From Mytilus edulis (taxonomy: Eukaryota): a DNA stretch of 64,000 nucleotides. Shown one piece after another: positions 8,321-52,880 of the stretch. Positions within the stretch are counted from its first letter, which is position 1. Each line of letters opens with the position of its first letter. The stretch spans positions 23,188,001 through 23,252,000 of the forward strand of contig NC_092354.1 of NCBI RefSeq assembly GCF_963676685.1. Reading direction: 5' to 3'. Under the pieces are notes generated by a model that searched no databases, was not told the origin of the DNA, and worked only from the letters and a program-made list of their open reading frames with translations. A program made the translations under genes and the position numbers.

Positions 8321-9231
8321 ATAGGAATATCAATACATCTGTGAAAAAAAATCTCCATGGAAAGTCTACAATTTCTAAAAATTGAGTTGATATAAGAACC
8401 CTACAAAAAAAAAAACAAGGTTCATTTCCAATTCCAAATATAATTTTTTGAAAATCAAGCACTGTCTAACACAAGTACATGAATACGTGTACTTGCATAA
8501 GGTCGATTTCTATTAGAAATATCTCATATGTTATAGTAGGCGAACAAAAAAAATCACAGTATATGATTGAGTGAAATTATTTATCAGAACTCTAAGTATG
8601 TTGGAATGCACATGAAAAAGTAACTACGTGTCATATTTGCAACCGAATGTTATACCTAATAAGAAAAGAACATAAAACAGTGTGTCTCCGGTAATATGTT
8701 GGTATATATTAGGATCAATCACTACCATATATACGCTCTATTTATTATAACCACATCACAACAGAAACAATATAATAACATCCTAAACGAAGGATTTGGG
8801 GTAAAAACCATATCAATAGATGACAGACATAATGAGGGATATCATTCCATGACACAAAATCAGTACATTCACACAGGGACTTTCTTTACTAACTAACTAT
8901 GGACAATGTACACTTATTTATGGTTCATGTCAGTTATTTACAGAATCGTATTTATTTTATATTAATACAAACACTAGAGTCATCGTTTGCAAATATTTGA
9001 ATTTTCGCGCCGAGTGCCATTTCTGGTCATTGTCGCCATCTTGAAAAAATTATATGAAATTTCCAGAAAATAGCAAATTTTCAAATCGATTTAGAAGGGA
9101 GAAGATCAAAAATCACACTATAGAAACAAAATGAATGATGTGAGGGAATATCACTCTTGTCAGATTCCATGATTTCCACATTGTAGTATTTTATTAACAA
9201 GTTTTACTATAAGTATAGGGTTATAGTTAAT

Positions 9232-9622
9232 TTAGGGGTTCGCCAAGGGGATAATCTCAGCCCTAACCTTTTTAAATTATTCATTAATGACCTCCCTGAA
9301 ATATTTGATAAAACTTGTGACCCAGTTCAACTTGATTCAATTCAGTTGAACTGCTTATTATATGCTGATGATGTAGTTTTGCCGTCTGAAACGGCAGAAG
9401 GCTTACAAAATAGTTTAGATAAGTTGTGTCTGTACTGTAATAAATGGGGATTAGAAATTAACCTTAAAAAACAAAAAGTTTGGTTTTCAACTGTACAGGA
9501 AAAATAAATCATTCATCTTTTAAATTAAATAATTGTCCTATTGACAAAGCTAGACATTATACATATTTAGGGATAAACTTCAGTGCCTCTGGAAGCTTTA
9601 CAGAGGCTAAACATGATTTATA
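9232..9622 (+). pseudogene. Non-LTR retrotransposon reverse-transcriptase fragment, truncated at the Maverick left end
   Basis: GVRQGDNLSPNLFKLFINDL...LLYADDVVL...YCNKWGLEINLKK, frameshift, then YTYLGINFS; ends exactly at the AGTAGT terminus. Confidence 0.85.
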
Positions 9623-9939
9623 AGTAGTGTAGTATCACTGAACACCCAAAGCCCCTTGAGTGTGGGTGCATAATTATAACCCCCCACCCCTTTTCAAATG
9701 GGGCCCTAAATATGAGGGGGTTATAAAATATTGGGGTCAAAGTTTTTTCTTTTTAAAAATAAGAGGGGGTTATAAATATTTTGAGGTGAAAGTGTAAGCA
9801 CTTTATAAATGTTCACTTTTAAACACTCTAATAATAATACACTGATGCAATGCGAACCTTCACACTCTATTTTGAATAACTGTCACTCCTTATAGATTTA
9901 CACTTAAAAGCATTAGCTACATAAACAGATGTTTTAACA
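9623..9939 (+). repeat. Left terminal inverted repeat (317 bp)
   Basis: agtagtgtagtatcactgaacacc...acagatgttttaaca is the reverse complement of 30187-30502 with about half a dozen differences. Confidence 0.95.
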
Positions 9940-10486: not shown

Positions 10487-12531
10487 TCATAATGTATGCG
10501 TAATAATGTTCTGCCTTCTTGGCTTTTCTTTCTCCAACTGGGTAATCATACCCTTTAAGATGTGAATAGTAGTAGAATGATTTTCCTCCATTTTCCCTAT
10601 CACTTCTGTTAATTGTTTTATCTGGGAGGATTTTTCCCCCCAACACATTGGTCTTATACTATCTGAATGTCTATCCAGTTGTTCTCTGAAAAACAAATAT
10701 TATAAAAATAAAAAGAACAAAGCAGACATATGTAAAACAAACACTGATCCAGCAAAAACAGTTATATCATTGTCTATTGATTTAAGACAGAAAACGCATA
10801 TTGAAGAAATAACACCTTTATAAAAAAAAATGCTTTTTATATATAATTGAGACTATGTATAAAGAGAGATAACTCGATATTTTTTTCCTATAAACAATGT
10901 AGTTGTGTGTATCTGTATCGTTGATGGTTACAATATCTTTTCCTTTTAATGCTTCTTTCTCTATTTTTCTCACTGTTACAATCTAACAACGTTCAAAGAT
11001 AATCATTGATTATCAGCCAGAGAGTTTTGTTTTTTTTTGTTCAGCGCTTAATCTTAAAGTATCCTACCCCATTTTTTTTACTTTTAATAATGATTAAGGT
11101 CATATCTCGTGTTACGGTTTCATATGTTTAATAAATATACTACGTTATGACATTAAATCTTGATTTTTGGTTTGTAAACAAATGGAAAAAAAAAACAATA
11201 AAAAAGCAACTTACCTTTTCATTTTCTGATCATTTTCTTTATCCTCTGTTATCAACCGTCGTTTTACCCCTTTTTTGCTGAATAAAAAAAATCATATACA
11301 ATATATACAAAATTGATTCATTGGTTGTTGGAAAAGATTTCATGTTCATTAGGTCAAAACTAAATTAACAATAAACACAATAGATAGGTTTTGTAATAAG
11401 GTGGTCCGCGGGAGATCAAGGTCGGAGAAATGTAGATTACCACGGGAAATCGGAGAGTATATTGCATAGGGACAGAAATTCAGCCTTGCAACAGGTCACC
11501 TACGGATCCCCTGGAAGAGCTGTTGCAAGGTTTCTTAACGTGCAATAAGCGTGACACTTTCTTTACACCAGACATCATATTTATCGCCCCTATTCTGACT
11601 GGACGTAACTGCAAATTTGTACATCATATACCGAAAATTTACATATCTAAAACTTACCTAGGGGATTTCTTTTTTTCTGGTGATAAAAGTGAACTCTCTC
11701 TTGAAGATTCCACTTCATAGAATCTCTTTACACCACTACAAAATTAATCGTCAAGTTCTCAATATCAACGAATGGTTAATTTTTATGTTTATTCTTGGAA
11801 TGAAAATGAATTAAAAAAGTAGAATATAAATGTTAACAGCACATTCCCATTTTTGTGAAGATATAATGTTGTAGTTTCACATAACAGATAGAAAATGCAT
11901 ATATATATATACATCCAATATTTTTTATTTTCGCGAAAAAATATAGACTAAGCAAAAGTTTATACCTGCAGTTACTGACATTTTTATCCATTACTCCGAA
12001 ATAGCATGTGTTTAATTATATTGAAATGTCTCAGAGTTACAAAAAAAAATAATGTTATTGTCGATACATTCGTGTCCCAAATTCTTAATTTCCATTTAGT
12101 TAGGTACAATATTCCTACAAAAATACAAGAAGAGACAAGGAAACTTACGATATTGGTTCTTCTTTAAATACCGTGCCAAAATGAATGGGGCTACTCTCCT
12201 CCCCTCTCTCATCTCCCCCACTCCATGGAAAGTCTTGTAAAAATAAATCAGTCTGCGAACTAAAAAAAGAGATAAATCATTAATGTTTTCTTGTACATAA
12301 ACTAAAATGTGTTATAGGTAATTGAAAAGATATCAAACTTCCATTATTCAAATTGATTATGTAAAAGAACTTAAATTGAAAAAAAAACCATGAATGTTTA
12401 TGAAATAAATCAAAAAAAGAATAAAATCGATGGTAACGATTTTAGAATGAACTTTGAATGTTTATAAATCAAATATGTACTCACTCGGTCCAGTTGTATA
12501 CCGAATCCTCGTCTGGTAAAAAATTTACCAT
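10487..12531 (-). CDS. Predicted 5-exon Maverick accessory gene, 165 aa; acidic N-terminus, NLS/RxL/KEN motifs, C-terminal coiled coil
   Basis: Exons 12531-12485, 12259-12149, 11735-11658, 11277-11215, 10685-10487. All four introns are phase 2 with GTRAGT donors and polypyrimidine-YAG acceptors, and join into one open frame. AATAAA overlaps the stop; a TATA box lies at ~12920. Confidence 0.7.
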
Positions 12532-13344: not shown

Positions 13345-15248
13345 ATGGCAGGACGTCACGTAATTTTGTCATTGGGACTATTATTGATGTATATTAATGC
13401 CACCTTCGTATTGTCAAAGGAAGAGAAATCATGTGTCCGTGGCTTTCGAGTCTGCAATAAAGTGTCCGAAACCATGCTGAGATGTGGAAGGGGTGCGAGA
13501 TGCATCACAGTGTACGACCCCACCACCATTGTGATATGCCAGTCCCCATCAACAGTAGTACGGGTTGGGTCAGGGGCTGGCATAAGCATCAATGGGTGCA
13601 AAGTTGAAGGTAAGATTTATTATGAATCTCTGTCTAAATATATATATTGTATCTTTTGATGTCTTTAATCATTCCCCCCCCTTTTTTTTCCCCTTTCTGT
13701 TTATTGCATATAGACACAAAAGTATATTTATTTCTCAAAGTATCTTCGAAACCACTGTTAAATTACAACTAAATACTTAAACGTATGCCCAGAAAATTAT
13801 ACAAAAATATTTATTTTAATTTATTGTCAAATTTACCAACAAAATTCGTTTTACGAACGAGTGTATCCAACTAATAAATTTCATTTGTCATAAAAACGAT
13901 GATAGAAAATGTCCCAGTCGTAGGTAAACAATTAAAAGTTTTAACAACATCCAAGAAGTGATGACAGCTTATATCAACATCTAAATGAATTTTGAGATGA
14001 CCCCTTTCCGATAAACTTCCGAAGTGTTTAGAGGAGTGGTAAGGGATTTTTATATTTAAATTTTAATTTTTTATTCCTGATTGCAACTATACAAACAAGC
14101 TACATAAAAAAACACCTATGATTTGAATATGATACCAGCTAGATTCATAATAAAGAAGCTGTATTTATAAATTGAATATGATACAAGCCTTTATATACAT
14201 ACAAATTGTTTTGAAACGGCTCCTTGATTTTATTAGAAACATCCGGTTCGTAAAAACAAGTGGAATGTAAAGTTAATTCTTACACTTTTCTTAAAACAGT
14301 TCTGGGAAAGAAGACAGGTGTGGAGAGAGAAGAGGAGATTATTATGAAGAACACAGAAGAAAGCGCAGAGACTGGGGAGGAAGCAAAAGAAAAGGCCACA
14401 TTTGCCTTCAGGTGGTCTGTGGCAACCCCACCTCCATGTGAGGAGAAAGAGACCATCCTTGGTATGTTCATAATAAAGAAAGAATAAAAAAATGTGAAAA
14501 GCAAGAACATATACATCCCCTCATCTACAACCATGTTATAAAAAAATATATATTTCCCTCTACAATTTTATAATCATGTAGGAAAATCCTTTGTTATATG
14601 TGAGACTTTATTATAAAAATTAAGAAAGATGTAGACTTTAGAGATGAGGGTTACTTGTGTTACTACAAATGCATTGGATGTTGAAGACAAGACTACTTCA
14701 AGTTTTTACATGTTTACAGTGCCCTCCTGTTATTAAATGAATTAATGCACATCTGTAAAAGTCTCTGATCTAGAAGTAAGTCTTTTATCAGAGACATATA
14801 TATGCCTCTAACTTTATATAGATATATCAAATGTATATGAAAATGTGGTATGAGTGCCAATGAGACAACTCTCCATCAAGTTACCATTTTTATAAAAGTA
14901 AACTGTAATAGGTCAAGGTACAGCCTTCAACACGGAGCATTCGTAATCAAATATCAGAACAAAAAAAACTTATTACACATTAGAGAGTAAAACGTTCATG
15001 AGAAAAAAGTTGAAAATCATACACAGTGTTTTTATTTTTAACACATAAAACTATCGAGTTACTCTTATCATAAATATTTTTTTCCAGATAAACTCATCAG
15101 TGCAGTGGCTGGAATTACACTCACTGTGGTAACCATTCTGGTGATCAGAGTGGTCAAGAGGAGGCAAAAGGTGGCCAGGAGAAGGGTCTCACTGAGAACA
15201 CCCCACAGACCCATCATGAGGAGGTGGACCTCCACACCAAACTTGTGA
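13345..15248 (+). CDS. Predicted 3-exon type I membrane protein, 195 aa (signal peptide, 6-Cys ectodomain, acidic stalk, TM helix, basic tail)
   Basis: Exons 13345-13609, 14300-14461, 15088-15248; two phase-1 GT-AG introns give one frame. N-terminal MAGRHVILSLGLLLMYINATFVLS; TM LISAVAGITLTVVTILVIRVV followed by KRRQK. Confidence 0.75.
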
Positions 15249-17226
15249 TTTTTTATGTTAAATGTAATGTAAATATATTTAGACTTAAAATTTAAATTAT
15301 ATCTGTGGTTTTTTTTAACAAACTCTTTTGTGAAATGCAATTAAATAAAGGATTTCTCATATTATTATACTAATGACTGGGTCATTGCATGCAATAGGTA
15401 CTAATGACTGGGTCATTGCATGCAATACCTATAAAAAAAATTTAATCACAATCATGCCCCCCTTGTATAAAAGTAATAATTTTAAAAAGGGGGAGACTAT
15501 CATTTTGGGATTACTTCCCTTGGTACAGTATCTATTAATATTTTCAAATATATTGGTATTCAAATTTTGATAAAATAAAACATAATAAAAACATTTTAAA
15601 TATGTATAAATATAAGGGTTAAATGTATGTATATACACTTTTCTTTATATCTTTTTTATATCTTCAATCAAAATTGTTATTACAACCACAGATATAATTT
15701 CAATATAGTGTAGAATAGTTTTTTGTATGTACATATTTGTGTGTGTGTGTGTGTGTGTGTGTGGTTTTAAGTTAAAACATTTGTTTAGGGTTACATTTAT
15801 AAAGATTAGATGTGGTATGATTGCTAATGAGGGAGCTATCCACCAAGTGAAAGGATCCGACATGTAACTATTGATCAACATATTGTACTGTCTTGAACAC
15901 TGAGCAAATTACAATTTCAATGTATAGAACATCCTTTAATGTTTTTAATTTGATTATTATTAATTTCAAATATTTAAGTAGAAAACAACTGGATTTTTTT
16001 TTATTATTTTACCAAATATTTTCACACGGGTTTAAATAATATTGATACAATTGAACCACTTTTTTACTGTTTTTTTTTAGAAAGTAAACATTGATATCCA
16101 TTGAAAAAAAGTCCTTCAAATAAATTTTACAGAAAATAATATAAACAATTTTACTCTGTCATAATGTGACCTTGAATAAACATTTTATCTGTGTGTAATA
16201 ATGTTGTTTTTATTTTGTGGTAAATGTTTATTTTATTTCATGATTAGAAGCTTTTTTTTTAATGTATGAATAAAACAGTATCTGGGTGTACCTATTTTTT
16301 TATGATTAGTTTAGTTAGTATTATATGATGTTATGCTTTGTTATGAATGATTCAGTACCAGGTGTACTTTTTGTGTTTTATAAATGTTATTGTAGTTGTA
16401 TTTGTTGTATTATCACATGTTTTATTTAAATGGTTAAAGGAAAGTATTAATGTGTCAAACATGTGGGGAGGGAGAGATAACTTTGTTTTTCACGGGGGGG
16501 GGGGGGGGGGGGGTGATTCTTTTAGTAATGTAAAAATCTGAATTTTTTTTTACTTATTCAATTTTGATTACTTATTTTTTTAACAATAAATAAATATAAA
16601 AAAGCATAACCCATGTTTTTTTTCTCTCTCGCTTATTTCTTATTAAAATATTCTAACATATTAATTTATCTTTACACGACTTAGTTATTTTCTTTATTTT
16701 TTTTTCTTAATTAGACAGTACTGATAAATTTTCATTTTGAGTCTTTGTAATGTATTTTTTGTATTTGTTATATGTAATAAACATATTTTTGAATGTACAA
16801 ATTGTGATTATTTCTTCTTTATTTGTAAATGAGCAATAGCTTTTTAAATTAGATTTTTCTTCTTTACCTGGTGGAAACAGCTGGTTTGTTTGCTGATTTG
16901 ACGAAAAGAAAATATTGATAAGTGGGGGGGTAGGGCTAATGAAACAGTAGTTCTAAAGAATTGTTTACGAACATCTTATCATACAAGACAGAAGACTGGA
17001 TCTGGGTATTGCAGTGAGACATTAAATACCAATGAAAAAAAATCTTACAGCTTTATCAAAACAATAACATGATTCCAACGTAAGCAACTCTCACCAAAAA
17101 AAAACATATACACATACACACCCACACTAACAAAACATGCATTGCTTCATTCCTGAACCTTAAAATGAATGGTTATTGGTAAAAATCTGGAAGCCAGTAC
17201 TGAGTTCCTTATCGTCATAATAACAG

Positions 17227-20200
17227 ATGTTTCTCCAAACTTGTGTTTTTGTGCCAATGAAGAAGGTAGGTTATGATGATGGTTCAACTTCAAATGTCTA
17301 TCTAGGTTTAAAACCTGTATCCTATTTTCAGATGAACGACTGCCCAGTCTTAGAGGATATCATAAATTGTTTTACTTCGATTGATCAATTATTGACGTTT
17401 GCTCACGCCTATGGAATGAATGATGACCCTTACGTAATTTCCAGATTAAACCATTTAAGGAGGCAAGCAAACCCATCGCATTTTCAGTGTTCAATATGCG
17501 ACGAGGTGTCTAGTACACAAGTAAAGTACGAATTACACGCACTTGAGCACGATATAATAACGGAATTCAACATGGGCCTATTTGATTATCCACATTCTAG
17601 TTCTAACCATATGGATACTAATTCAGGAAATTCCTTTACACGGAAAACGATAAAAAGAAGTCGGAATGAAAAAAACACCGATTGTTCATACTCAACAACA
17701 AGAAACACCGACACTGATGTGCCCATGTACAAAAAATCTCGTGTATCATCCCAAAATCAAGCAATCTCTACACATCAGTTTGGGGCGGGCATTGAGAGTG
17801 AACCTGCATACACATTTAGCCAAATAAAAGAGCGAACATACGCTAAAACTGGAGCCATTGACAAGACTTTTCAGGCCAAATTTACCAGTCAATTGCACGA
17901 CAAGAAATTGTCAGACATAACAGAAGACCTACATGGTTTGTTCGACGATATCCTGGATACAGTACGTCAAGATTCAGATGCCAATAGTCTCGCTCGTGTG
18001 ATCATAGAACACAACGGCTTGACTGATCCGATTGTAGTCTCTCTACGTGAACTGAACAAAATGGACTCATCAATAGTGATGGACGAAATAAGCAAGGTGT
18101 TACAAAGTAACGAAGAACTACCTGTTGACGACAGTTGTACGATTACAGTGGGTCGAATAGATATTCCATCGGGAGGCGGGCGACTCCGTATCACCAAATT
18201 GACGGGGGAAAACAACAGTCTAATGAGAAAACGTTCTATTGTGAACATACCCAGTACGACTATGTGCATGCCGATGGCTATAGTCGTGTGTTTTCTGAAA
18301 ACATGTCGACTAGTTTCCCCCGTAGAATGGCGTCTTCTTACAGAGGGAGACTCTAGTTCCATGCCAGATAAAGTTTTGAAGCACAAATGTCACCCGCATT
18401 GGTATTATAAACACGTTGTAGAAAAGGGGAGGAAAGAATGTACTTTATTTTCTAGACGTCTTTGTGAATTGGTTGGAGTGAGTACAGAAAAACCGTGTAA
18501 TATCAATGAAATAGAGCTTTTTGAAAGACTGTTAAACATACAAATTCTTGTTATTTCAGCTAAATTAGGGAATAAATTCATTCGAGTCGGGGAAAACGAT
18601 TCACTGCGCAAAAAAGTGTTTCTCTATCTGGTTGAACAAGATGATTTCCAACATTTTACAGCTATTGTTAGTCTCACGGGCTTCTTTTCCTGCAATTATT
18701 TCTGTAGTACATGCTTAAAACCGTACAACAATAGAGACCAGCATTCGTGTGAAACAACATGTACTGTCTGCTGCAGCTCGGACTGTATAAACACGTCCAG
18801 TATAATGTCTTGTCGTACATGCAACAGGATTTGCAGATCACTGGAATGCTTTCGAAAACACGTAGAGAAAAAACAAACACGAAAAGGAGGATTATTACAT
18901 TCGGAATGCGACAAACGATATCAATGTAAAATATGCAAAAAAATACTAGTTTGGGACGATCGTTCTCCCGCCATTCACCAATGTGGGGAATGGAAATGTC
19001 CTTGCTGCAACGAATATTACACGGGAGAACACCTGTGTTATCAGAGAAGAATTACCAAGGAACTTACCGATAATGTTATGATTTTTTTCGACACCGAAAC
19101 GAAGCAGGATACATTATTACAGTGCGAAAACGGCTACCAACCTACAAATACAAGGTGTGAAAATTGTACGGGCAAAGGTAAAAAATGTGAAAAATGTAAA
19201 CTGTGTCAGACATGTAGCAAATCTTGGTGTGGTTCTAGCGAACACACAGTAAACTTTATTTGTATGCAGACGGCTTGTGACCTCTGTAAAGATAAGCCAA
19301 TACTACACAATACTAAATGTTCGTATTGTGGTGTTCGTTGTCCGCTTTGTTCTCAACGTGATAAGAAAGTTTTCAAAGGCGGACCTTGTGCTAACACTTG
19401 TGGGTTTCGAATGAAACTGTTCAAAGGTAGTACCGCAACGGCCGAATTCTGCAGAACAGTATTTTCTGACCAATATAAAAATGGGATTGTCCTCAGTCAC
19501 AACGGAAGTGGTTACGATAACTATTTTCTTCTTGAATGGTTACTCTCCAACTCCATCCGTCCAGAAATAATTTTCAACGGGAGTAAAATTATGTACATGT
19601 TAGTGCAACGTGGATTGAACATCAAGGTGTTGGACTCCTTAAACTTTCTTCCAATGAAACTTTCGAAAATTCCTAAAGCGTTTGGATTGACGGAATTGAA
19701 AAAAGGCTATTTTCCCCATTTTTTCAACAGAGAGGAAAATCAAAATTACGTTGGTTCCTACCCTCCCACCAGGTATTATGGAGCCGATTACATGAATACA
19801 TCAGACAGAGAAAACTTTTTAACTTGGCACAAGTCACGCCAAAATGAAATTTTCGACTTTGCAAAAGAAATGGAGGCGTATTGTGTTAGTGACACGACAA
19901 TTTTGAGAGAAGGTCTATTGAAATTCAGAAATCTAATGTTACAAGTCACTGGAACAGAAACCGAGATCACCGATCCCGAAACCGGACATGTAAAAATAAC
20001 GTATCCAGGCGGGGTAGATCCACTTGATTACGTTACAATAGCCAGTGTATGCATGGGAATATACAAATCGAAGTTTTTAACCGAGGACTATGACATACAA
20101 GTAACTACTCTCACTGCAGACCATGTCGAATGGAAACGTATGAAACCTACAGAAGAGGGGTTCGACGTGTGGCATGATGGTAATTGGTATTCGTCCAATA

Positions 20201-22381
20201 CCTATTTATCTGAAAACCCTCAACATAGATTCGGAAAAAGAAAATTCGTCAAGAGCCCCCTCGCACATGTACCTTCTGAGGGATATACCAGAAGATACAA
20301 TCACAGTAAAATATCGATTGCTTGGTTGGAATGGGTCAAGAAACAGAACAAGATTCATATACAACACGCTCTGAATGGAGGTGAATTCAAGATACCAGGG
20401 ACGAATTATCACACCGATGGTTACTGTCGGGAGACCAATACAGTGTACGAATTTTTAGGGTGAGTTTGTGAATGAAGTTGTGCCTTAAAATATTCTTAAA
20501 AATTTGGTCGCCGCCGCCGCCGCCCGCCCTCCGCACGCGCGCGTAATCAATTACGCGTATTCCATCATATGTTATAAGTTACGCGTTATTCATGACGCGT
20601 TCTAAGTTACGCGTAGTGCAGAACGTATTCATTTACGGGTATAAATATTTCATGGTACCGAAAACGTGTGTTAATTTCATAAAAAGTTCGGTAAAATGTT
20701 TTGCTGTTGGTGTACCATATTGCATACTCATGTGTGTCATTGCATGCTCAAACGTTCATGGTATTGTTCAATTTTCTTTTTTTTTTACAGTTGCTGTTTT
20801 CATGGTTGTCGTGTATGCTACCCAAAAGATAGATCGGAAACGAAACATCCACTTACTAAACAATCCATGGAGGAGTTATATGTTGTCACAAAAAAGAGAG
20901 AGTCAACTATTCGAGATCTTGGATACAGATATCGTCATATATGGGACCATGAATTTAGACAAGATATTGACAAAAAAGACGATCTTAAAACGTTCATTGA
21001 TAATTTGGATTTGGTGGAGAGAATTTCGGAGAGGGAAGCATTCATGGGCGGAAGATGCGACGGGACGAAAATGTACTGCAAAGCAGATATTGGAGAAAAG
21101 ATTAAATATGTAGACTTTACATCCCTGTATCCATGGACTAATAAATATTCTCGATATCCTGTTGGTCATCCCGAAATCATAACGAACGATTTCAAAGACA
21201 TACATAATTACTTTGGACTGTGTAAATTGAAAATACTGCCACCAAGAGGACTTTACCACCCTGTATTACCATATCGATGCAACAAGAAACTCACTTTTCC
21301 TCTCTGCAGGACTTGTGTAGAAGCGGAAAACAGAAGTACATGCACGTGTTCAGAGGAAGCGCGAGCATTCATCGGTACTTATGCTACACCCGAGGTGTTT
21401 TTAGCCGTTAAAAAAGGATATAAAATTATAAAGATTTATGAGATATGGCATTTCCCTGAAACTACAAAATATGACAAAGAAACGAAATCCGGGGGTCTGT
21501 TTTCAGACTATGTGCAATTGTTTCTCAAGATAAAACAGGAGAGTTCCGGATTTCCAAAAGATTGCAAAACAGAATTAGAAAAGCAAGAATACATTCGACT
21601 CTATAGAGAAAACGAAGGCATACATCTTGACTATGATAACATCAAAGAAAACCCCGGTTTGAGAAGTTTGGCGAAGTTATGTCTTAACAGTTTTTGGGGA
21701 AAATTTGGCCAGAGACTGATCCTAAAGAGGCATTCATACTTCCACGAAACGGAATGTGACAAATTCTTTCAGGTGTTGTCAGATCCGACGAAAATGGTAG
21801 AAAACTTTCACATAGTTTCGAACGATACCATACAATTAGAATGGTCACAAAACTCACTATTTCCACCTGTGGATGTAAAAACGAACATTTTCATTGCAAT
21901 ATTCACCACAATGTGGGCACGGTTAAAACTGTACTCGGTGTTAGACTTAGTCGGTAGTGAATGTTTATATTACGATACCGACAGCTGTGTGTATTTGTCT
22001 CGTAAAGACACAAAAGAGCCAACACTTGGAAATTACCTTGGCGAACTGACGTCCGAAATATCACCAGAGGAAGGTCACATTGTGGAATTTGTATGTGGAG
22101 GCCCTAAGAACTATGCATACAGAACTTTAAGTACAGAAACATGCAAGGTGAAAGGTTTTACTCTGAATTTTACGAATTCAAACATAGTGAATTTCGATGC
22201 TATTAAAAGCATGATTTCTCGTGATAGGAGTGTGCATAAAACACTGACTAACCCAAGCAAAATCACCCGCCTTGCAACGCACAGAAAAATATATAGTCGA
22301 GAGGAAAACAAAAAGTACTGTATCACATACAATAAACGAGTTTTACTAGACAATTACGACACCATTCCTTACGGATATTGA
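17227..22381 (+). CDS. polB: Protein-primed family B DNA polymerase polyprotein (~1607 aa spliced), two exons 17227-20459 and 20791-22381
   Basis: ExoI FFDTET, ExoII HNGSGYD, ExoIII YCVSD, LDSLNF, KGYFP, motif A YVDFTSLYP, motif B KLCLNSFWGKFGQ, motif C YYDTDS. Splicing restores the YEFLG|CCFHGC..C motif. The true start may be a downstream ATG (e.g. 17332). Confidence 0.95.
20460..20790 (+). other. 331-nt phase-2 spliceosomal intron in pPolB containing a CpG-rich ACGCGT array
   Basis: Donor GG|gtgagt, acceptor ttttctttttttttttacag|T; removal joins the two pPolB ORFs in frame. Confidence 0.9.
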
Positions 22382-22453: not shown

Positions 22454-22978
22454 TCAATATTTTAACCAGTGTTTCTTTTCGTTCGTATTTCGCATGCCGG
22501 GTACAACGTCACGCCTTCCTCCTCTTCTCTTAACGAACAGTCCACCTGATTGTTTGAATTGACACTTTCTTTTTCCTGTTATTAACCTTTTAGGTACATG
22601 TAGTTTTTCTAAAATGTCTTTGAACGTTTTGTCACCAATTGGCGTGTTTTCCCCAGGACACACAGAATGGCGAATGAGATCAATAATGTGTGACCCCTTA
22701 ATGCATTCTCCATTAACGACCAATTCACCTTGCCCGTTATGACTCAGCTCGTTTTGATCTTGAGCCACAATGAACTTGTAAAGTTCCACAGCACGTTTGT
22801 TCATCCTTTTAGGTATAGAATGTACTATCATTGACAGCAACGTACTATCGTTTTTTTCCCCTTCGTTGGTATCTTGATCCATTTTTTTCCCATCTGTGTC
22901 TTTCTTGTTCGTTAGGGATGTCTGTTTCCTTAAACGATCATAGCGTTCCTTTGATATCAGCATGAGTTCCTGGGCCAT
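22454..22978 (-). CDS. Conserved Maverick hypothetical protein (probable start MAQELMLISKERY)
   Basis: GELVVNGECIKGSHIIDL and PIG..F..L..LHVP motifs resemble a recurrent Polinton ORF; QSGG motif and basic C-terminus; its ATG overlaps the upstream stop (TAATG). Confidence 0.7.
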   Translation of the reverse strand: MAQELMLISKERYDRLRKQTSLTNKKDTDGKKMDQDTNEGEKNDSTLLSMIVHSIPKRMNKRAVELYKFIVAQDQNELSHNGQGELVVNGECIKGSHIIDLIRHSVCPGENTPIGDKTFKDILEKLHVPKRLITGKRKCQFKQSGGLFVKRRGGRRDVVPGMRNTNEKKHWLKY

Positions 22979-23244
22979 TACTGTTCGTTCACCAGGGGCA
23001 AAATTGGTTTGATCAAGAGTGCTATCAGAATCGGATGTCTCACCAAAATATTCCTTTTTCGCCTGTGTGCAATCGATCGGGAACACAGGGCACGAATGTT
23101 CAACTGGTAAGGTCGGAGTTTTCTTATATGATGAGGACTCATATGCAAAACACCTCTGTAAATATTCAATGCTATTTCCGATAAAATATCGATTTGCTCA
23201 TTCGTTGCAGACTGAATCAACACTACGTTGTCGGGATTCGGCAT
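22978..23244 (-). CDS. Small basic Maverick protein (core/membrane-lytic-type candidate), 88 aa
   Basis: ILSEIALNIYRG...L..Y...IRAL...RRKRNIL followed by hydrophobic ILIALLIKPIL; typical ORF beside the Polinton ATPase. Confidence 0.7.
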   Translation of the reverse strand: MPNPDNVVLIQSATNEQIDILSEIALNIYRGVLHMSPHHIRKLRPYQLNIRALCSRSIAHRRKRNILVRHPILIALLIKPILPLVNEQ

Positions 23245-23337
23245 GATACAAAAAAATAAGAAATGTACTGTATGATCTGATTCTGAGTGACATTTTCTAA
23301 CGTAATGATGTCATGTGGTAGTGTTCTCTACTTTTAT

Positions 23338-24006
23338 TCACTTTGGTGTATACACTACTGTGACGTCATCAGATGGGAAGATCGACGTTCGTAACCGATA
23401 CCTTTTATCCGTATACGGTGATAAGTCACATATGAGATATCCACCAATTGAAACAGAGCTAATAGCTTTTTCGTACGCCTCTTTGAAATAATTCACTTCA
23501 CCTGGAAAAGCCTGACTTGCAAAGGCAAGGAGTTGTTTTTTATCCCTGTTATTAGCCATCAGGACGAATATATGAATATTTAAACTTATGGATCTAAAAT
23601 GTGTTCCTTTTTCAAACAGGTTTTGTGTGATGTAAATCACAGAACAGTTTCGATGGTGCGATAGAACCGTAACCAGATGTAAAGCGTCGTCGCTTTTGCT
23701 TATTAATCTCATCATGTCATCAAGAACAATGACCGTGTGCTTCTCAGGGTTTGTCCATTCAATGAGATCACTTCGAGATGGTAACCCCTCGTGCAAGTCG
23801 AAATTGGGTATTGTATTTTCAGCTTGTTCTAAAGTAGGTGGAAACTCAGTATAACAATAGACGATTCTCACCGGAGGTATCTTGAACATGGTTGATGAAT
23901 GTTTTAGTAGTTTCATAACAAAAGTTGTTTTCCCACTTTGCGTTGCACCCGATACCATACAAGTGCATGGACTTTGGAAAGGTAGAAGCGTTGTCGACGT
24001 TTCCAT
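23338..24006 (-). CDS. FtsK/HerA (A32-like) genome packaging ATPase
   Basis: Walker A GATQSGKTT, Walker B VIVLDD, SHHRNCSVIYITQN motif, RSISLN. Confidence 0.95.
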   Translation of the reverse strand: METSTTLLPFQSPCTCMVSGATQSGKTTFVMKLLKHSSTMFKIPPVRIVYCYTEFPPTLEQAENTIPNFDLHEGLPSRSDLIEWTNPEKHTVIVLDDMMRLISKSDDALHLVTVLSHHRNCSVIYITQNLFEKGTHFRSISLNIHIFVLMANNRDKKQLLAFASQAFPGEVNYFKEAYEKAISSVSIGGYLICDLSPYTDKRYRLRTSIFPSDDVTVVYTPK

Positions 24007-24085
24007 GACGGTGTCTAAAGTATGTGTGCGAGGATAGGTTTGAGGAGAGACAATTAAATACTGTGAAAAATGACTCTATATTTTA

Positions 24086-24556
24086 TTAACAAAAACTAAA
24101 ATACGTATTAACAAAATTAAGAACAATACGGTCGTTAACATCATCATCTGAATGAAAAAAACATGCAATATCTTCTAATGAATAATTTAAACATACAATC
24201 AACATTAAAAAAGTTAAAACAAACAAACCACAGTGAGAAGAGTTCTTCGACTGCACTTGAACATTAAAACATTCGTACTTTCTCACGTTAGAGTTCAAAA
24301 AGAGATTTAATTCTTCACCATAATATTCTGGCGGGTTCCCGAAACTATCAAAAAACATCCCTTCAGATTTGTTCTTGAACACGATGCCTAACCAATGTTC
24401 TCCTGGTCGATCGGCGCTGTCGCTGTTAACGATATAGGCACTAGGGTACTGTGTCATATCATCCGTTGGTAAGCTGTTTCTAGCATACACTCCTTTCACT
24501 AAATTTTGTAAACACGGATTTGATCTGATGGCACATTCTAACTCGTATCCATTCAT
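24086..24556 (-). CDS. Adenain-like cysteine maturation protease
   Basis: GEHW (His), FFDSFG (Asp), QVQ...HCG (Gln/Cys); catalytic residues intact. Confidence 0.95.
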   Translation of the reverse strand: MNGYELECAIRSNPCLQNLVKGVYARNSLPTDDMTQYPSAYIVNSDSADRPGEHWLGIVFKNKSEGMFFDSFGNPPEYYGEELNLFLNSNVRKYECFNVQVQSKNSSHCGLFVLTFLMLIVCLNYSLEDIACFFHSDDDVNDRIVLNFVNTYFSFC

Positions 24557-25870
24557 GATTGCACGTAACGAACGTTACGTGATTTGTCTATTTCCAGAAA
24601 CGAACCAAATACTCCGAAGGCAATACAGGTAACGGCTGTAGGAAGTGCAGTACTGAATTTCATTTCAAGTCTCACATTTCTATGTTTAACCAAGTTTATA
24701 TAGTCATCTCCCAATCCGCTTGGGTCCAATTGGAAAGCATATAAGGTGTAACCCTTACCAAAATCTTCTCTGGAAATGGTAAGTCCGGCATCTTTATTTA
24801 ACTTTTCACAGGCTTCAAATAAATTAGTGTATGCCACTGCATATTGTCGATTATCTCCAAAGTCCAGTTTTAAGGGTCTTGACGGAACGCTCTCTCCATT
24901 GACATATAGACCTACGTCAGTGGCGTTGTAGTGATTAGTGATTAAAAAAGAACGGATTTGTCCCATAAGAACCGTTACCGCTATCTTGTGATATTAAACC
25001 AACCACCAGAGTACTAGGGCGAATGGTAAATAGATTGTCCCAAATGAACTCACTTGAGGATTTGTTCCTTTTGACTTCAGTACGTTGGAAATAGTAGCGT
25101 ACAGGTTTTATTTCGATCTGTTTCATATGATTAACGAGGATACCAGGATCGACTTTAATTTTACAGGCCTTGTAAACACAGTCTAATAGCTCTAACTTGT
25201 AGGCAGCACCATCTTCACCTGATATGACAAAAAACGGATTGGTAGTACGATACAACTTAATCGAGAGGTCAACACCTTCAATTAAATGATGGTCTAATGA
25301 AAATATATCTTCAAAAAGCGGTCCTTCCATTTCGAATTCTCTGCTTGCCTTGATAAAATCTCGACGAAGGACTAGACCTGTGTTTGCTCCTGATTTCCCA
25401 TCTGTAGAAGCTAAATTGCCGATATCTTTCATAAAAAGCTGTGACTGGAGTTGTGATTTCTGCTCGTCTGAACCACTGTTCAAAATCGTCTTAAGGTAAG
25501 CTTTCCAAGGGTAGTTTGAAGTGCTTACGGAGACAAGTTTATTGTTCATATACACATCGATTTGTGACCACATGGCTTGGAGTGGTAAATTAACAATACT
25601 TGTCGTATCCGTGTCATCAAAGGCACTACCATCACCTTTGACGATCTTTGCACGAACGTACAGTCTACTCCGTCTCAAATCCATGTATTCAGGACCTTGT
25701 CCAGAAATGAAAAATTCAACTGTAGAAGCATCTGATGATGTAAAGTTAGAAAGCGGTCTTGTTTCTGAATAAAAAATCCTGTCGATCGCTACTTGATTTT
25801 TAGGTTCATCGAATAAATCTAGCTCCATTGGTATGTTAATGTCTGTGTTTTCATCGTTCAAATAAGCCAT
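24553..25870 (-). pseudogene. Double-jelly-roll major capsid protein, frameshifted by a 7-bp duplication
   Basis: ELDLF...Q...RP...EFFI...YMDLRRSRLYV N-terminus and GYTLYAF/RLEMKF/LEIDKSRNV C-terminus. GTGATTA is duplicated at 24931-24944; removing one copy restores NPFFFNHYNATDVGLYVNG. Confidence 0.9.
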
Positions 25871-26340
25871 TATTTTGTCTTTACTCTATCGAAAATGGAT
25901 GGGGTTGTGTCGAAATCTAATCTGCGAACTCTGTTTTGTTTTCTCCTCTTCCCGAGAGTTTTTTTTTTCTTAGAGCTTTTCTGTGCTCTTACTCCTTTTG
26001 AGTTGACGATTGAAATGCTTTGTTTTTTTGAGTTTTTTCCTTTTATACCCTTGGACATTGAACTTGACTTTTTCCTTCCAATGTACGGAGTTTTGTCTTG
26101 CTTTTGGTGTTTTAGTTCCGATTCTGCGCGGTCCTCAATTGCAACAGTTGAAGCCACCAGTTCTACTTTAGGTTCGTTTGTCGGTAATTTATTTTTCGGA
26201 AAAACAAACCGACGTTTCCTACTGTAACGTTTCGATAAACCGCCTCCTGACTGATTGTTTACACGCTTCTTTCGATTACTCGCTTTTTTTATTGATTCTT
26301 CCCAAGCTAGTACATCGCTTACGTATGGTGAATTGAACAT
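25870..26340 (-). CDS. Lys/Arg-rich core (DNA-condensing)-like protein, 156 aa
   Basis: Highly basic, contains QSGGG, and sits between the minor and major capsid genes with TAATG overlaps on both sides. Confidence 0.7.
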   Translation of the reverse strand: MFNSPYVSDVLAWEESIKKASNRKKRVNNQSGGGLSKRYSRKRRFVFPKNKLPTNEPKVELVASTVAIEDRAESELKHQKQDKTPYIGRKKSSSMSKGIKGKNSKKQSISIVNSKGVRAQKSSKKKKTLGKRRKQNRVRRLDFDTTPSIFDRVKTK

Positions 26341-26804
26341 TACTGCAGAAACGGATACTTTTTTAAATGAAGTGTCACGCAGCAGTTCTTGTTGATGAAT
26401 GAGCTCGGTTGTCCAATTTCATCAGTTATATAGATATGGATTTGGTTCAGTCGCCCTAGACGTACAGGGACAAAATAGGGGACGCCAAATATTAAGTTTG
26501 TTTTATAGTGTTTCTGTTTGTTTACAGTATATTGCTCCGTTGTTTCTTTCTTTATGTAAACTTTTCGAAGAAGGGGTTTCTCTGAGGACCCCACAAAACT
26601 CTCTTCACAGATGTTTGAATAAACGTAGATATCCTCTATGTGCTTCGAAGTATCTTTATACGTGATACTTATTTCTGTCAACCCCACCATCCAATATCCT
26701 GTTAGATCTATTTGTCTATCCAGTTGTATTGTAAAGTTACATGCTGTGTTGTTTTCAAAAAGAAGATTTCCATCTGTTGATTTAAGAACCATGCGTATAC
26801 TCAT
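26340..26804 (-). CDS. Minor capsid protein (penton, single jelly-roll)
   Basis: LKS....F.NNT..NF...L...I.L.G.W.VGLTEI, IYVYSNI...FVG...PLLR and VTLHLK motifs typical of Polinton mCP. Confidence 0.9.
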   Translation of the reverse strand: MSIRMVLKSTDGNLLFENNTACNFTIQLDRQIDLTGYWMVGLTEISITYKDTSKHIEDIYVYSNICEESFVGSSEKPLLRKVYIKKETTEQYTVNKQKHYKTNLIFGVPYFVPVRLGRLNQIHIYITDEIGQPSSFINKNCCVTLHLKKYPFLQ

Positions 26805-26843
26805 CTTGGCACCGAATGAAGAAAAACAAAGATTTGAAACTAC

Positions 26844-28009
26844 TTATTCGTTTTGAATATCAGACATCGGTAACCAAGCGTCAAATTTTTTGGGGTAGCC
26901 AAGCCAACGTACCAAAGCTTGATTAATCCCATTCTGTTTCCGCTTTCTTAATATTTTTTCGATTTTCCATATCGTGTTTTTCTCGTCTTTTCTAACCTTC
27001 TGAAGTTCTGGATGATGGAAGGAACCAAGTATGTTTTCAGTTAACAAATCTTTGAGTAAGTAAGTGGGCAAACGATCTCGGTAATATCGACGTCGAATTT
27101 TAAAGAGCTCTTCTGTCCATTTCTGTTGATACCCTCTCTGAAACGGATGACGTTTAAATGTAATCCTGACCAGATCATTAACTCTGTATTTAAAGCTGTT
27201 GTCTGGTTTCTTTTTTCCCTTTGATGACATTGTTTGCTCATCTTTAGTTCTCTTCTTTTCATTTTTTTTTTGCTAGGGTTTCGGGCAAAATATGCACTCA
27301 GTCGAACTTCATCTGCGTTTTGTTTGTTCACTTCGGACGGGGTATATCCACCTAGTGAACGATGCGGTCTTTTATTATAACTCGCCACCATATCCTGTAT
27401 AACGTCAATGTATTTATACGTTTGTTTGTGTCTGAAATATGTGTACATGATTGTTTTAATACTTCTGATACTTCGCTCCACAACAGCTGACTTGGTTTCA
27501 TTTTGAGAATAGTATGTGTTTATCCCTTCTTTTGAAAGATAACCGCGTACATACTTATTGACAAACTCTTTACCTAAATCAGAACGGATAGAGGTTGGTC
27601 TTCGGCTTCCAGATAGAATTTTTTTTAAAGCTTTCAGCACACTTTTATGTGTTTTATCTTTCAGGCTTTCTATCCACAAATGTTTTGAGAAGACGTCAAT
27701 AACAAACAACAAATACTTCACACCTAAATTTTCACTCTGAAAGCTATCAAATTGAGCCAAATCTATTTCCCATAAACTGTCTATCGTGTTGACAACATAT
27801 CTACTTCTTCTGAACTTACGCACTGTATTTCTGGATAAACTGTACGAGTCCTGATCCTGTAACCATTGCCTTATTTTATGTCTTCCTATTTTAAATTTTC
27901 CATCTTTTTTTACTATGCGATACAGTTTATCAGGACCTGTAAATGATGCCGGATGTTTTAGATCATACCATATTTTGTGTAAGTAGTCCTCATAGTTTAA
28001 TGAACTCAT
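26844..28009 (-). CDS. int: Retroviral-like (rve) integrase with C-terminal chromodomain; 1-nt frameshift in an A10 run
   Basis: WEIDL / IRSDLGKEF / VVERSIR DDE triad. The second frame gives FKYRVNDLVRI...KWTEELF and chromodomain IEKILRKR...ALVRWLGYPKKFDAW. Frames switch at T10 (27262-27271). Confidence 0.9.
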
Positions 28010-28266
28010 TCTGACTAAAGATATTTTAAAGTAAGTTGGATATTTAAACACATTTGTTCTTCAAATGTTAATTGATTGCGGATTGTGTGTGTGTGTGAGT
28101 CATTTTTCGTTTTTTAGCCATTATTGAGAATTACTTCCAATGCGGCATTATGATATTTACTGCTATATGCATGAAAAAAATTCAGAATGATTTTGATTTC
28201 TTGTGTTTATACACAGTAAAACAAAAAACAAAAACAAAAAAATAAAATATAAATAATTGCTGTTGT

Positions 28267-28791
28267 CTATGATCTGTTCACATTGTCGGCTCTTTTCAAG
28301 GCTTGGTTAATAGTTGATCTTATTCTCAGTAGGTAATTCCATTGTCTTTTGTTTAAAAATATGCCACTTGTTATATTTCCGATGAAATGTCGAATACCTA
28401 TCCAAACTTGTTTTTGGTGGGTGCAGATAGTCACTTTATATTGTTCTGGTAAATCAAACTGTTTTAGATATCCACATGATATGTTGTTGATTCCACTGCT
28501 CTGATAATCTTCTGCTCCGTTGATCTTTTTACAGTCTGTATAGTTATAATGCGCACTATTCTTAATCATTCCACTGGTCAAAGCTAAACTTGTAGACATT
28601 AATGCCAGTAGAACAACGACTCCAGTCCATTTTATAATGTTTATATGCATGGTGTATTTTTCATATATTGACGATATATTTGAAACCACACTTGACTGAG
28701 ATGGTATTCTACCTCCCATAGAAAACGTTATAGGTGGCATCTCAGTTTTATCAACTAATCCAGTCTCACATGATACTGTTCTTGACATCAT
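28267..28791 (-). CDS. Membrane-anchored PC4-like (ssDNA-binding fold) protein, ~174 aa
   Basis: Hydrophobic WTGVVVLLALMSTSLALTSG; C-terminal FDL...YKVT.....VWIGIRHF...SGIFLNKRQWNYL matches the PC4/Sub1 pattern; TATAAAA upstream. Confidence 0.65.
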   Translation of the reverse strand: MMSRTVSCETGLVDKTEMPPITFSMGGRIPSQSSVVSNISSIYEKYTMHINIIKWTGVVVLLALMSTSLALTSGMIKNSAHYNYTDCKKINGAEDYQSSGINNISCGYLKQFDLPEQYKVTICTHQKQVWIGIRHFIGNITSGIFLNKRQWNYLLRIRSTINQALKRADNVNRS

Positions 28792-28861
28792 GTTGTTTCC
28801 CGAACGAGTAAAAGACCTAATGACAATATAACACGAAGTCAATGCTTTTATACACAGCTGT

Positions 28862-29680
28862 TTACAAAATTTCCCCGAATGGATTACAACTTGAACAGTT
28901 TAACATGCTCTCTTGTACTTGGTGATCTTCTCCTAAAATACAAGGAACAATGTTTTCCAGTTCTGGTACAACCTGTCTTACTTCAGTAAATGTTCCTTTA
29001 AGAGCTTCCCACTTATCGTATGTTAAAGAAATACCTTTCTTTGTTGGAACAACTTGGCTTGAATTGGGAATCATCCAACGCTGTCGCACGTCTACGGTTG
29101 GATATATTCTATTCACAGTAACGTACACACCTTTACCAAGATGAAATGTCATTTCGGGATTTCCGTCAACATCATCAATCATCTGACCTATAGCATCATC
29201 TATGTCACTAGCATACATTTCCAAAAGCACCCATTGTGGTAAATTCAAAGCTATTCCTTTTTTGGTTGGAATATAAGCACCTGTGGAGTTTTTCTCGTAT
29301 TTACGAATATGGATCAACAATTTATCACACCATTCGTTAGGAACAACAAATATGTCTCCACCTATAGGTAACATACATAGATTTTTGCTCACTCCTGAAG
29401 TATCAGTTATTGAACTTTTCAAAAGATTAACCAGATTTGATTTTCCCTCTAAAGTAAGAGCAGAGCAAAAACTTTCGAATGCTTGTGCACCTCTTCTCTG
29501 AATAGTAGATATCAGCTGTCTAGTTTTTGAATACGAATTCGACTGTTGTAAAATATCTTCCTTCAATTCGTCAGTAAGTATTCCAGCCTGGTATAGATGG
29601 TCTGTTACAACATCCACCGGCGTTTCTTTAACCAATTTCACGTAATTACGCTGAAGAGAATCTTTGTGTTCTTTCTGCAT
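28862..29680 (-). CDS. CARD-PC4-PC4 fusion protein with C-terminal Cys/His motif, 272 aa
   Basis: N-terminal LQRNYVKLVKE...DHLYQAGIL...RQLISTIQRRGAQAFESFCSAL is a CARD. Two IR/VR...PTKKGI.L...W..L PC4 signatures follow, then C..H..C..CNP. Confidence 0.9.
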   Translation of the reverse strand: MQKEHKDSLQRNYVKLVKETPVDVVTDHLYQAGILTDELKEDILQQSNSYSKTRQLISTIQRRGAQAFESFCSALTLEGKSNLVNLLKSSITDTSGVSKNLCMLPIGGDIFVVPNEWCDKLLIHIRKYEKNSTGAYIPTKKGIALNLPQWVLLEMYASDIDDAIGQMIDDVDGNPEMTFHLGKGVYVTVNRIYPTVDVRQRWMIPNSSQVVPTKKGISLTYDKWEALKGTFTEVRQVVPELENIVPCILGEDHQVQESMLNCSSCNPFGEIL

Positions 29681-30186: not shown

Positions 30187-30502
30187 TGTTAAAACATCTG
30201 TTTATGTAGCTAATGCTTTTGAGTGTAAATCTATAAGGAGTGACAGTTATTCAAAATAGGGTGTGAAGGTTCGCATTGCATCAGTGTATTATTAGAGTGT
30301 TTAAAAGTGAACATTTATAAAGTGCTTACACTTTCACCTCAAAATATTTATAACCCCCTCTTATTTTTAAAAAGAAAAAAACTTTGACCCCAATATTTTA
30401 TAACCCCCTCATATTTATGGCCCCATTTGAAAAGGGGGTGTGGGGTTATAATTATGCACCCACACTCAAGGGGCTTTGGGTGTTCAGTGATACTACACTA
30501 CT
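30187..30502 (-). repeat. Right terminal inverted repeat (316 bp)
   Basis: tgttaaaacatctg...tgttcagtgatactacactact. Confidence 0.95.
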
Positions 30503-45802: not shown

Positions 45803-46566
45803 TGTGCTGTCTCACAAGTAAACACAGCTAACCATGGTATATCTTTATTGTTAATTGTTGTACAATTGTCATATACTGAATGCGGTGAAAAGCTACAATA
45901 TAAAAATAAAACAATACTGTAGAAATTTGTTACAGAAAAAATACCTTAATAAAAATAGCAACATGCTAAGAACATAATTAGATGAAAATGTCTGAATTAG
46001 CAATTTATATAGCACATAGCAAGTGTGCATTGTTCCAGTATCACATAGAAATATTAAAAGACAGTACAAATTCACAAAATTGTAACTGCATGTTTATATA
46101 CCTGGTGTACCATGAAAATATCTCAAAGTAGAAAAATATGGCTTATCAGTAGAAGTTACCTAAATCTACACTTTAATTACACAATTAAATGTAAATAATA
46201 AATGAAATTATTTCTAAATTTCAAATACATGTTAAAAAATATCATAATTCTCAAAAACAATCATAATATAATAACGCGGATGGCGTTCCATACATAAAAA
46301 ATCTCGCAACTTGACCCTTTGACAAAATAATCTGAAAATGCCGTTATCGCGCAGCATACAAAAACTACAATTAATATGCATTAAGAACTATTTAAATGTG
46401 CACTAAAGACATGAAAAATTTACTTACATTGTGCTTGGATTAACAGATTATTACTTTTAGATGATAGAATTAAAACGTGATAGTTTCAAGGAAGTTATCG
46501 TAATTCAATAATAAAAAAATCAAATCGGAAAAAGCTTTACAAAATTCCGGAAATCGTTTCAGCATA
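45803..46566 (-). repeat. 3' LTR
   Basis: Direct repeat of 52881-53644 with about 4 substitutions. Confidence 0.95.
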
Positions 46567-46767
46567 CTCCTCGCCTGATATTGAAAATTTCACCTTAAAC
46601 TCAACAATATCAAAAATAAAAACAAAAAAGAAACTTGCAACGTACATATTTACAAGTGTTTATAAGACATTGATTCATATTTAGAAGACTAAACATTTTT
46701 TCATTAATAATGTCAAAATATATGCAAAAATACCAAAGTTCAAAGTTCACATGTACTTTAACACTGA

Positions 46768-52700: not shown

Positions 52701-52839
52701 ATAACATGAAACTTGACACTTTTGCCCTTTTTATGTGAGTGTCCTTTTGTTCCTGGTGGAACAGAGTTCCCTTTTCAGTCATCTGACTAGTTCGTTGATC
52801 TGTGTCTTCTTCACGACTGTCTGTAAACATGGCGGACAT
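46768..52839 (-). pseudogene. BEL/Pao gag-pol polyprotein split into four ORFs by frameshifts
   Basis: Gag Zn knuckles CLRC..H....C/CDIC...H....H; protease YAMLDDHS; RT FYVDDGL; RNase H YCDASE...IPRLEL; integrase GVDMFGP/SDRGTNF/GGVWERMI. Confidence 0.92.
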
Positions 52840-52880
52840 GTACCAGTGTGTTGTAAGGATCCTTCAAGTAATCTTTTCAC

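Follow-up and report, generated by a model that had tools for sequence, protein, structure and literature searches.

A three-exon gene for a predicted type I membrane protein is an integral part of a Maverick in the Mytilus edulis genome. In each of three subfamilies of the element it occupies the same position, after the left terminal repeat and before the polymerase. The copy described here lies within a 20.9-kb Maverick in the window, by which we mean the whole 64,000-nucleotide stretch that was analysed. Our preferred reading, to which we assign a probability of about 0.45, is that the gene encodes an element-native surface protein resembling adenovirus E3 proteins, which would be displayed on cells carrying an integrated Maverick and would modulate host recognition; its phosphorylation, 14-3-3 binding, partner, and effect are what we infer. 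The relevant features of the window are as follows.

9623..9939, plus strand: left terminal inverted repeat, starting AGTAGT, ~98% identical to the right repeat
13345..13609, plus strand: exon 1, with a predicted signal peptide (~residues 1-24) and the six-Cys ectodomain C30-C85 (13432-13599), from translation and hydropathy
13610..14299, plus strand: intron 1, GT..AG, phase 1; joint in runs X3, X1, and X7
14300..14461, plus strand: exon 2, 162 nt, acidic stalk including the seventh Cys
14462..15087, plus strand: intron 2, GT..AG, phase 1, containing a host repeat (14834-14941) and a candidate cassette exon (14720-14775)
15088..15248, plus strand: coding part of exon 3, with the predicted transmembrane segment (~15093-15149), basic tail, MRRWTSTPNL (15216-15245), and stop
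15249..16717, plus strand: long 3' UTR; the spliced X3 contig ends at 16708 and X6 contigs reach 16717
17227..22381, plus strand: protein-primed DNA polymerase B (Pfam PF03175), one spliced intron (20460-20790)
22454..29680, minus strand: core module (ATPase, adenain-like protease, major capsid, integrase-chromodomain, CARD-PC4, and others), from Pfam and synteny with sister elements
30187..30502, minus strand: right terminal inverted repeat, ~98% identical to the left repeat

The element is recognizable as a Maverick from both its ends and its genes. The 317-bp terminal repeats with AGTAGT ends are of the long, AG-rich-ended type, and PF03175, PF00665, and PF00770 all score above the Pfam cut-off; the ATPase and DJR capsid give weak Pfam matches that are backed by synteny with sister elements. 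Sister elements read through their capsid and integrase frames, whereas both are split here, indicating that the window copy is a decaying provirus in which the surface-protein gene is still open. A 6-bp target-site duplication, present in four of five sister elements, is absent and was likely lost after insertion. At the left end (9187-9622), the element interrupts a LINE reverse-transcriptase-like fragment that does not resume past the right end, consistent with the missing duplication. The polymerase intron is joined GT..AG in runs X1 and X6, and the sister elements' gene is split at the same place.

Other open reading frames of the element were noted in passing. A second small left-arm gene, probably spliced, lies on the minus strand at 10487-12276; its last exon is coiled-coil-like, it gives a weak spectrin-like Pfam match (E 0.012), and ~70% nucleotide matches to it occur in subfamily 2. 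Also on the minus strand, 28865-29680 encodes a protein in which a CARD is joined to two PC4 domains, with 73% identity to its counterpart in sister elements, and 28270-28791 encodes a hydrophobic stretch followed by a region that appears PC4-like by eye (no Pfam match). A 1.8-kb contig of X7 spans both of these frames.

Joined at GT..AG sites with both introns in phase 1, the three exons of the surface-protein gene yield an open frame of 195 amino acids. Its hydrophobic N-terminus (19-residue Kyte-Doolittle mean up to 1.64) follows the n/h/c pattern of a signal peptide, and one hydropathy peak (mean 2.21 at residues 145-163) followed by the basic KRRQK marks a predicted transmembrane segment, a layout repeated in subfamilies 2 and 3. 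Type I topology is predicted on this basis. The ectodomain of ~120 residues consists of a 56-residue domain with cysteines at 30, 37, 47, 53, 65, and 85 and an acidic stalk with a seventh cysteine at 135, while the basic tail contains RRRVS and ends in RRWTSTPNL. The single sequon falls within the signal region, as it does in subfamily 2, and none occurs in subfamily-3 exon 1 or in subfamily-3 exon 2 as read. Translation, hydropathy, and splice joints confirm the three-exon architecture that the first-pass annotation had proposed from the letters; its description of the ectodomain as beta-rich is tentative, backed by the sequence pattern and a low-confidence model (pLDDT 46.6). A gene model from M. 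galloprovincialis (VDH97954.1, 195 aa) is 99% identical with the same splicing, and UniRef names the homologue P0012 "Secreted protein."

Splicing was examined by comparing the window with eight public runs, four as contigs (X1, X3, X6, and X7, from four studies under three organism labels) and four as raw reads (X21, X22, X23, and X24). The contig runs were typed "RNA?" by guess, and no run holding the stretch is on record as RNA; we read them as RNA because they contain GT..AG joints, together with the spliced polymerase intron in X1 and X6. The joint between exons 2 and 3 is present in all four contig runs and in one raw read of X24, and the joint between exons 1 and 2 in three of the four (X3, X1, and X7). 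The raw-read RNA runs X21, X22, and X23, of which ~6% was read, contained no joint at either intron. Both introns are therefore joined in public runs as predicted, and the exons are spliced together. Unspliced contigs span intron 1 in X1, X3, X6, and X7, and read-through into this intron gives a 105-aa product. A secreted form arising from intron-1 retention is only a lead, given that subfamily 2 does not preserve the length of the read-through. At the start of intron 1, 80 nt (13610-13689) are ~73-76% identical between subfamilies 1 and 2, above the flanking exon, and are possibly regulatory. A different route to secretion, through a cassette exon at 14720-14775, had also been suggested. The acceptor..GTAAGT letters are present there as described, but comparable pairs occur 13 times on the plus strand and 16 times on the minus strand of the window, no joint enters or leaves the candidate in any of the eight runs, and no counterpart was seen in the other subfamilies; we reject the proposal.

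At 14335 and 14352, the transcripts of the four contig runs agree on letters that occur neither in the window nor in the four close assembly copies covering those positions. Shared letters differing from close assembly copies also occur at further sites up to 16663. The gene family is thus expressed, but from a near-identical copy or allele outside the assembly and not demonstrably from the window copy; there may be one expressed insertion common to several species and absent from this assembly. Across the element, depth in X1, X6, and X7 falls on the surface-protein gene, with some on the polymerase and, in X7, on CARD-PC4. Contig depth on the 3' UTR is 21-46 in X1 and X6 and ~2 in X7, with capsid and integrase near zero, although contig depth is a crude measure of expression and these runs were selected for containing this gene. 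Raw reads indicate transcription over much of the left arm on both strands.

A search of the same genome with exon 1 retrieved 21 matches at 19 loci. Subfamily 1, which includes the window copy, comprises 8 loci that are 68-100% identical and have the same left repeat within different flanks; all three exons are open in three of them. Subfamily 2 comprises 11 loci with exon 1 30-41% identical, its own AGTAGT-ended left terminus, and the same exons, all of which are open in one of six copies examined. The polymerase N-terminus lies downstream in two of these copies (74% identity). The gene order also holds in another assembly, where the subfamily-2 protein and the N-terminus of the polymerase are fused in a single M. 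edulis gene model. Subfamily 3, a sister lineage, appeared to lack the gene, as tblastn, blastn, tblastx, and phmmer gave no match. Reading the open frames overturned this, revealing three exons, both introns in phase 1, the same Cys spacing, and an exon 2 of 162 nt, as in the window and compared with 129 nt in subfamily 2. This highlights how gene callers and homology searches miss such genes, subfamily 3 having been invisible to both tblastn and phmmer. The subfamily-3 gene occurs in two of the five sister elements first examined and in a third element found later, with open frames in three near-identical young sister copies. The remaining three of the five are without it, one by internal deletion and two with short arms.

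The left flanks point to independent insertions, with four distinct flanks among five other close copies compared with the window's own, and four of four differing in subfamily 2. Splice-site context is similar in the three subfamilies, and exon number and phase-1 introns are equal. Exons 1 and 3 align between all three (z 5.3-20.8; 0/1000 shuffles reach the score), and profile comparison between subfamilies gives E 3.6e-6. From the shared position and structure it follows that the gene predates the split of the subfamilies and is not a secondary insertion into the window copy. Its occurrence in other copies and in two distant subfamilies answers the concern, raised in the first-pass annotation, that it might be an independent host insertion.

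The Cys spacing x6-x9-x5-x11 in exon 1 is kept in all three subfamilies at identities of 14/76 to 34/84 (~20-40%). Between subfamilies 1 and 3, the capsid is 83-85% identical and the ATPase 81%. The gene is under purifying selection, with pairwise dN/dS of 0.13-0.64 in every computable pair and none above 1; between subfamilies 1 and 2, synonymous sites are saturated too. Given these two results, older divergence or module exchange can explain the low identity as well as an arms race does. Stalks of subfamilies 1 and 2 align no better than chance, although the stalk is acidic and retains one cysteine in all three subfamilies.

The motif R-x-x-S-x-P is a 14-3-3 mode I motif and a 14-3-3/basophilic-kinase consensus, and the RSTSTPNV sequence of Raf-1 is a mode I client motif. 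The surface protein ends in MRRWTSTPNL in subfamily 1, MLRCVSTPNV (RMLRCVSTPNV) in subfamily 3, and YQWGSMPNV in subfamily 2. All three thus have S-x-P-N-[LV], while the full M-x-R-x-x-S-T-P-N is confined to subfamilies 1 and 3, which also match R-x-x-S-x-P and have hydrophobic residues at -5 and +4. These two terminal motifs are identical at 6 of 10 positions, which 0.4% of shuffles equal, and they share with Raf-1 the Arg at -3, the Pro at +2, and T-P-N-[LV] after the Ser. Subfamily 2 is without the -3 Arg, and its database copy P0002 is also without the +2 Pro. The Raf-like 14-3-3 motif of the first-pass annotation accordingly gains real support from a distant subfamily and is weakened by subfamily 2, and a short motif match of this kind does not amount to homology to Raf. 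Shuffling the tail of the window copy produces R-x-x-[ST]-x-P in 13% of cases, and predicted 14-3-3 sites are very common, reaching ~90% of GPCRs according to the available text of PMC6673703. R-x-R triplets occur in all three tails, as would be expected of any basic cluster following a transmembrane segment, and lie at unconserved distances from the membrane. The RRRVS sequence, put forward as a PKA site, fails on two counts: it is not conserved between subfamilies, and RRx[ST] appears in 35% of tail shuffles.

In our preferred reading, the signal peptide would be cleaved and the six-Cys domain would fold with three disulphides on the acidic stalk. This domain would bind a host surface or immune partner, which would account for an ectodomain changing far faster than the capsid. 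A basophilic kinase would phosphorylate the Ser of M-x-R-x-x-S-T-P-N-[LV], and 14-3-3 would bind the phospho-Ser site, mask the R-x-R clusters of the tail, and release the protein from the ER to the surface. Partial sources describe 14-3-3 masking of RXR retention motifs for a GPCR (PMC6673703) and portray E3/49K as an immune modulator of type I membrane topology that is encoded in a highly variable region (PMC13437282). Counting for an element-native surface protein are depth on the 3' UTR with near-zero capsid and integrase depth, splicing, and selection; counting against it are the copy-mismatched transcript letters, the loss of the motif in subfamily 2, and the gene's absence from three of five sister elements. 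A conserved, spliced, receptor-like gene transcribed alongside a quiet-looking capsid module points to a resident-state program at the cell surface. The gene, which encodes a small and tractable protein, therefore bears on whether animal Mavericks live as viruses and on how integrated copies deal with host cells.

The analogy to adenovirus E3 proteins drawn in the first-pass annotation holds for architecture and does not extend to homology. As described in the accessible part of PMC13437282, E3 proteins (E3/49K, CR1) are type I proteins from a variable region with a compact ectodomain, a disordered spacer, and a tail bearing trafficking motifs, and adenoviruses are a non-enveloped virus lineage related to Mavericks. 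In the same source, the CR1 domains of E3/49K are Ig-like and heavily glycosylated, and sorting depends on LL/YxxPhi motifs. The mussel protein, judged by its predicted translation, instead combines a six-Cys domain with a phospho-motif tail and has its only sequon in the signal region. It is thus not predicted to carry the heavy N-glycosylation that marks CR1/RL11 ectodomains. No sequence similarity to E3 proteins was found, and neither Pfam nor PDB sequences gave a match that would speak for or against an Ig-like CR1 domain, the structure model being too poor to judge the fold. We regard the protein as E3-like by architecture only and do not assign it to CR1/RL11. Adintoviruses provide another comparison: their membrane-active PLA2X, GasderminX, and cupiennin-like genes (PMC8502044, in part) are likewise animal Polinton accessory genes thought to act on membranes. 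Those proteins belong to the virion module and are thought to disrupt membranes, and the accessible text mentions no spliced type I membrane protein.

Eight matches came from a profile search of 1.84 billion representatives. Six are gene models from Mytilus that belong to subfamilies 1 and 2; the other two, P0007 and P0008, were repeat-driven and discarded. Two further database searches gave 5/5 and 12/12 Mytilus matches, the latter among the best 8000 candidates scored. Judged by sequence, all credible relatives come from Mytilus and none was found outside mussels, which adds a new orphan family with a six-Cys domain, known from mussels. Own-genome protein searches with single-protein queries (21, 9, and 14 matches) uncovered no intact element-free paralogue. 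There were no matches among PDB sequences at E 10, only weak transmembrane-region matches in Pfam, and no confirmation for any of 26 pattern matches in IMG/VR. The ESM Atlas returned nothing for the ectodomain alone; its best match (0.84) is an unnamed 193-aa cluster, mostly cnidarian where known, and falls under the level that counts. Two AlphaFold predictions were of low confidence (pLDDT 48.6 and 46.6), and a wide fold search with a low-confidence model gave one uninformative row (Z 2.6); from models this poor, the lack of a match should not be read as a new fold. No description of the gene was found in the literature covered, which excluded most subscription journals and bioRxiv supplements, and the accessible parts of 10.1101/2023.08.22.554363, PMC10294476, and PMC12166617 contain nothing on such a gene.

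Exon-1 loci of subfamilies 1 and 2 are concentrated on C11, which makes up 6% of the assembly and holds 18 of the 19; the last is on a small contig repeating one C11 copy. On C11 they extend from 5 to 76 Mb and are densest at 23-38 Mb. The sister lineage is spread over C5, C6, C7, C8, C10, and C14. Subfamilies 1 and 2 survive largely as fragments of the left end (12 left ends versus one right repeat and one ambiguous repeat) with precise left termini within different flanks, which suggests one-ended, chromosome-local spread. Because many of these fragments are too short to reach the gene, their abundance does not simply reflect selection for it. A fourth, degraded exon-1 group occupies duplicated C11 blocks with no core genes within ~10 kb.

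Nematode Mavericks carry intron-bearing cargo, the wasp/wosp proteases and krma kinases, by the left repeat (10.1101/2022.07.12.499685, in part). The mussel gene is likewise an intron-bearing, poorly conserved accessory gene a few kilobases from the left repeat, with a presence that varies between elements; it is a Maverick accessory gene of a kind already known, in a family that is itself new. The nematode genes differ in encoding enzymes rather than a receptor-like membrane protein and in neighboring the integrase rather than the polymerase, and searches of the mussel genome and databases found no element-free host family or distant-taxa transfer. A captured host gene carried as cargo, like wosp and krma, with a host-type or selfish function unrelated to infection, is a reading we consider rather unlikely. 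Position and introns match the nematode cargo, host repeats sit in the arm, some elements dispense with the gene, and the degraded exon-1 relatives on C11 have no Maverick core genes nearby. Weighing against capture are the searches above, which found no intact paralogue free of the element and whose credible matches (6/8, 5/5, and 12/12) are all gene models from Mytilus that fall within these subfamilies. Splicing also occurs in the polymerase gene of the element, so introns here are no mark of host origin, and the gene is older than the split of the three subfamilies. Were it ordinary cargo, it would still be a new orphan family, of modest interest. We have stronger doubts that the gene is a decaying relic, once useful to the element and now transcribed by read-through with no present function, which is the least probable of the readings considered. 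Most copies are indeed broken (open in 3/8 subfamily-1 loci and 1/6 examined subfamily-2 loci), and the both-strand raw reads over much of the arm suit read-through, but precise splicing across four studies (intron 1 in three of four contig runs), purifying selection, and the open frames of the three young sister copies do not.

In superinfection exclusion, which we judge somewhat unlikely though the likeliest of the alternatives, the protein would occupy or remove the receptor of same-subfamily particles. A cell with an integrated copy would then be protected, and its host would tolerate copies or keep expressing them. Subfamily-specific ectodomains, spliced transcripts with little capsid-module depth, and common left-arm-only copies all fit, as does the recurrence of the same two letters in transcripts from four runs that bear three organism labels, as from one retained, expressed insertion. 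Yet the capsid, the would-be chooser of a receptor, is 83-85% identical where ectodomains are ~20% identical; many left-arm fragments end before the gene or carry it broken, making abundance no sign of selection; and the element has no known particles. An elaboration of this idea, improbable in our estimation, is that a subfamily-specific surface tag gives integrated copies immunity against relatives, with one retained, expressed insertion in the Mytilus edulis complex and a kinase and 14-3-3 switch. If true, it would parallel, in a DNA virus, the retroviral env genes that have been domesticated as restriction factors. A factor for cell-to-cell spread or egress that works like the FAST proteins of reoviruses, or like MFUS-1, the fusogen of nematode Mavericks, seems very improbable. 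A small single-pass protein with a polybasic cluster after the transmembrane segment, in a virus with no known envelope, would suit such a factor. FAST proteins, however, have a very short ectodomain and no cleavable signal peptide, unlike a protein with a signal-like N-terminus and ~120 ectodomain residues including an acidic stalk, and transcripts come without capsid-module depth. Mavericks did gain a fusogen once (10.1101/2022.07.12.499685, in part), and MFUS-1 is similarly Maverick-encoded, with a signal peptide and a single transmembrane segment. According to the same partial source, MFUS-1 is 866 aa long, compared with 195 aa here, and has the large gB-like ectodomain of a class III fusogen (~750 aa); the authors of that work detected no MFUS-1 transcription, in contrast to a mussel gene spliced in several runs. 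In size and layout the mussel protein matches neither FAST proteins nor class III fusogens.

Some observations concern neighboring repeats and sister arms. At L101:4515-7140 (C11, 79.30 Mb), a degraded exon 1 is immediately preceded by a tandem array of ~27 units of a ~99-bp piece of the sister left arm. A 121-aa open reading frame on the minus strand of L052:730-1092, and in the matching arm of C5 and C14 elements, contains the words H-V-L-E-R-H and I-I-T-A-Y-P, which we take to recall bacterial RNase toxin folds, with no Pfam support. Within the window itself, the region 45803-53180 is likely a young LTR retrotransposon: a pair of identical direct repeats, each at least 300 nt long and separated by 7078 nt, flanks long minus-strand open reading frames of 1223 and 402 aa.
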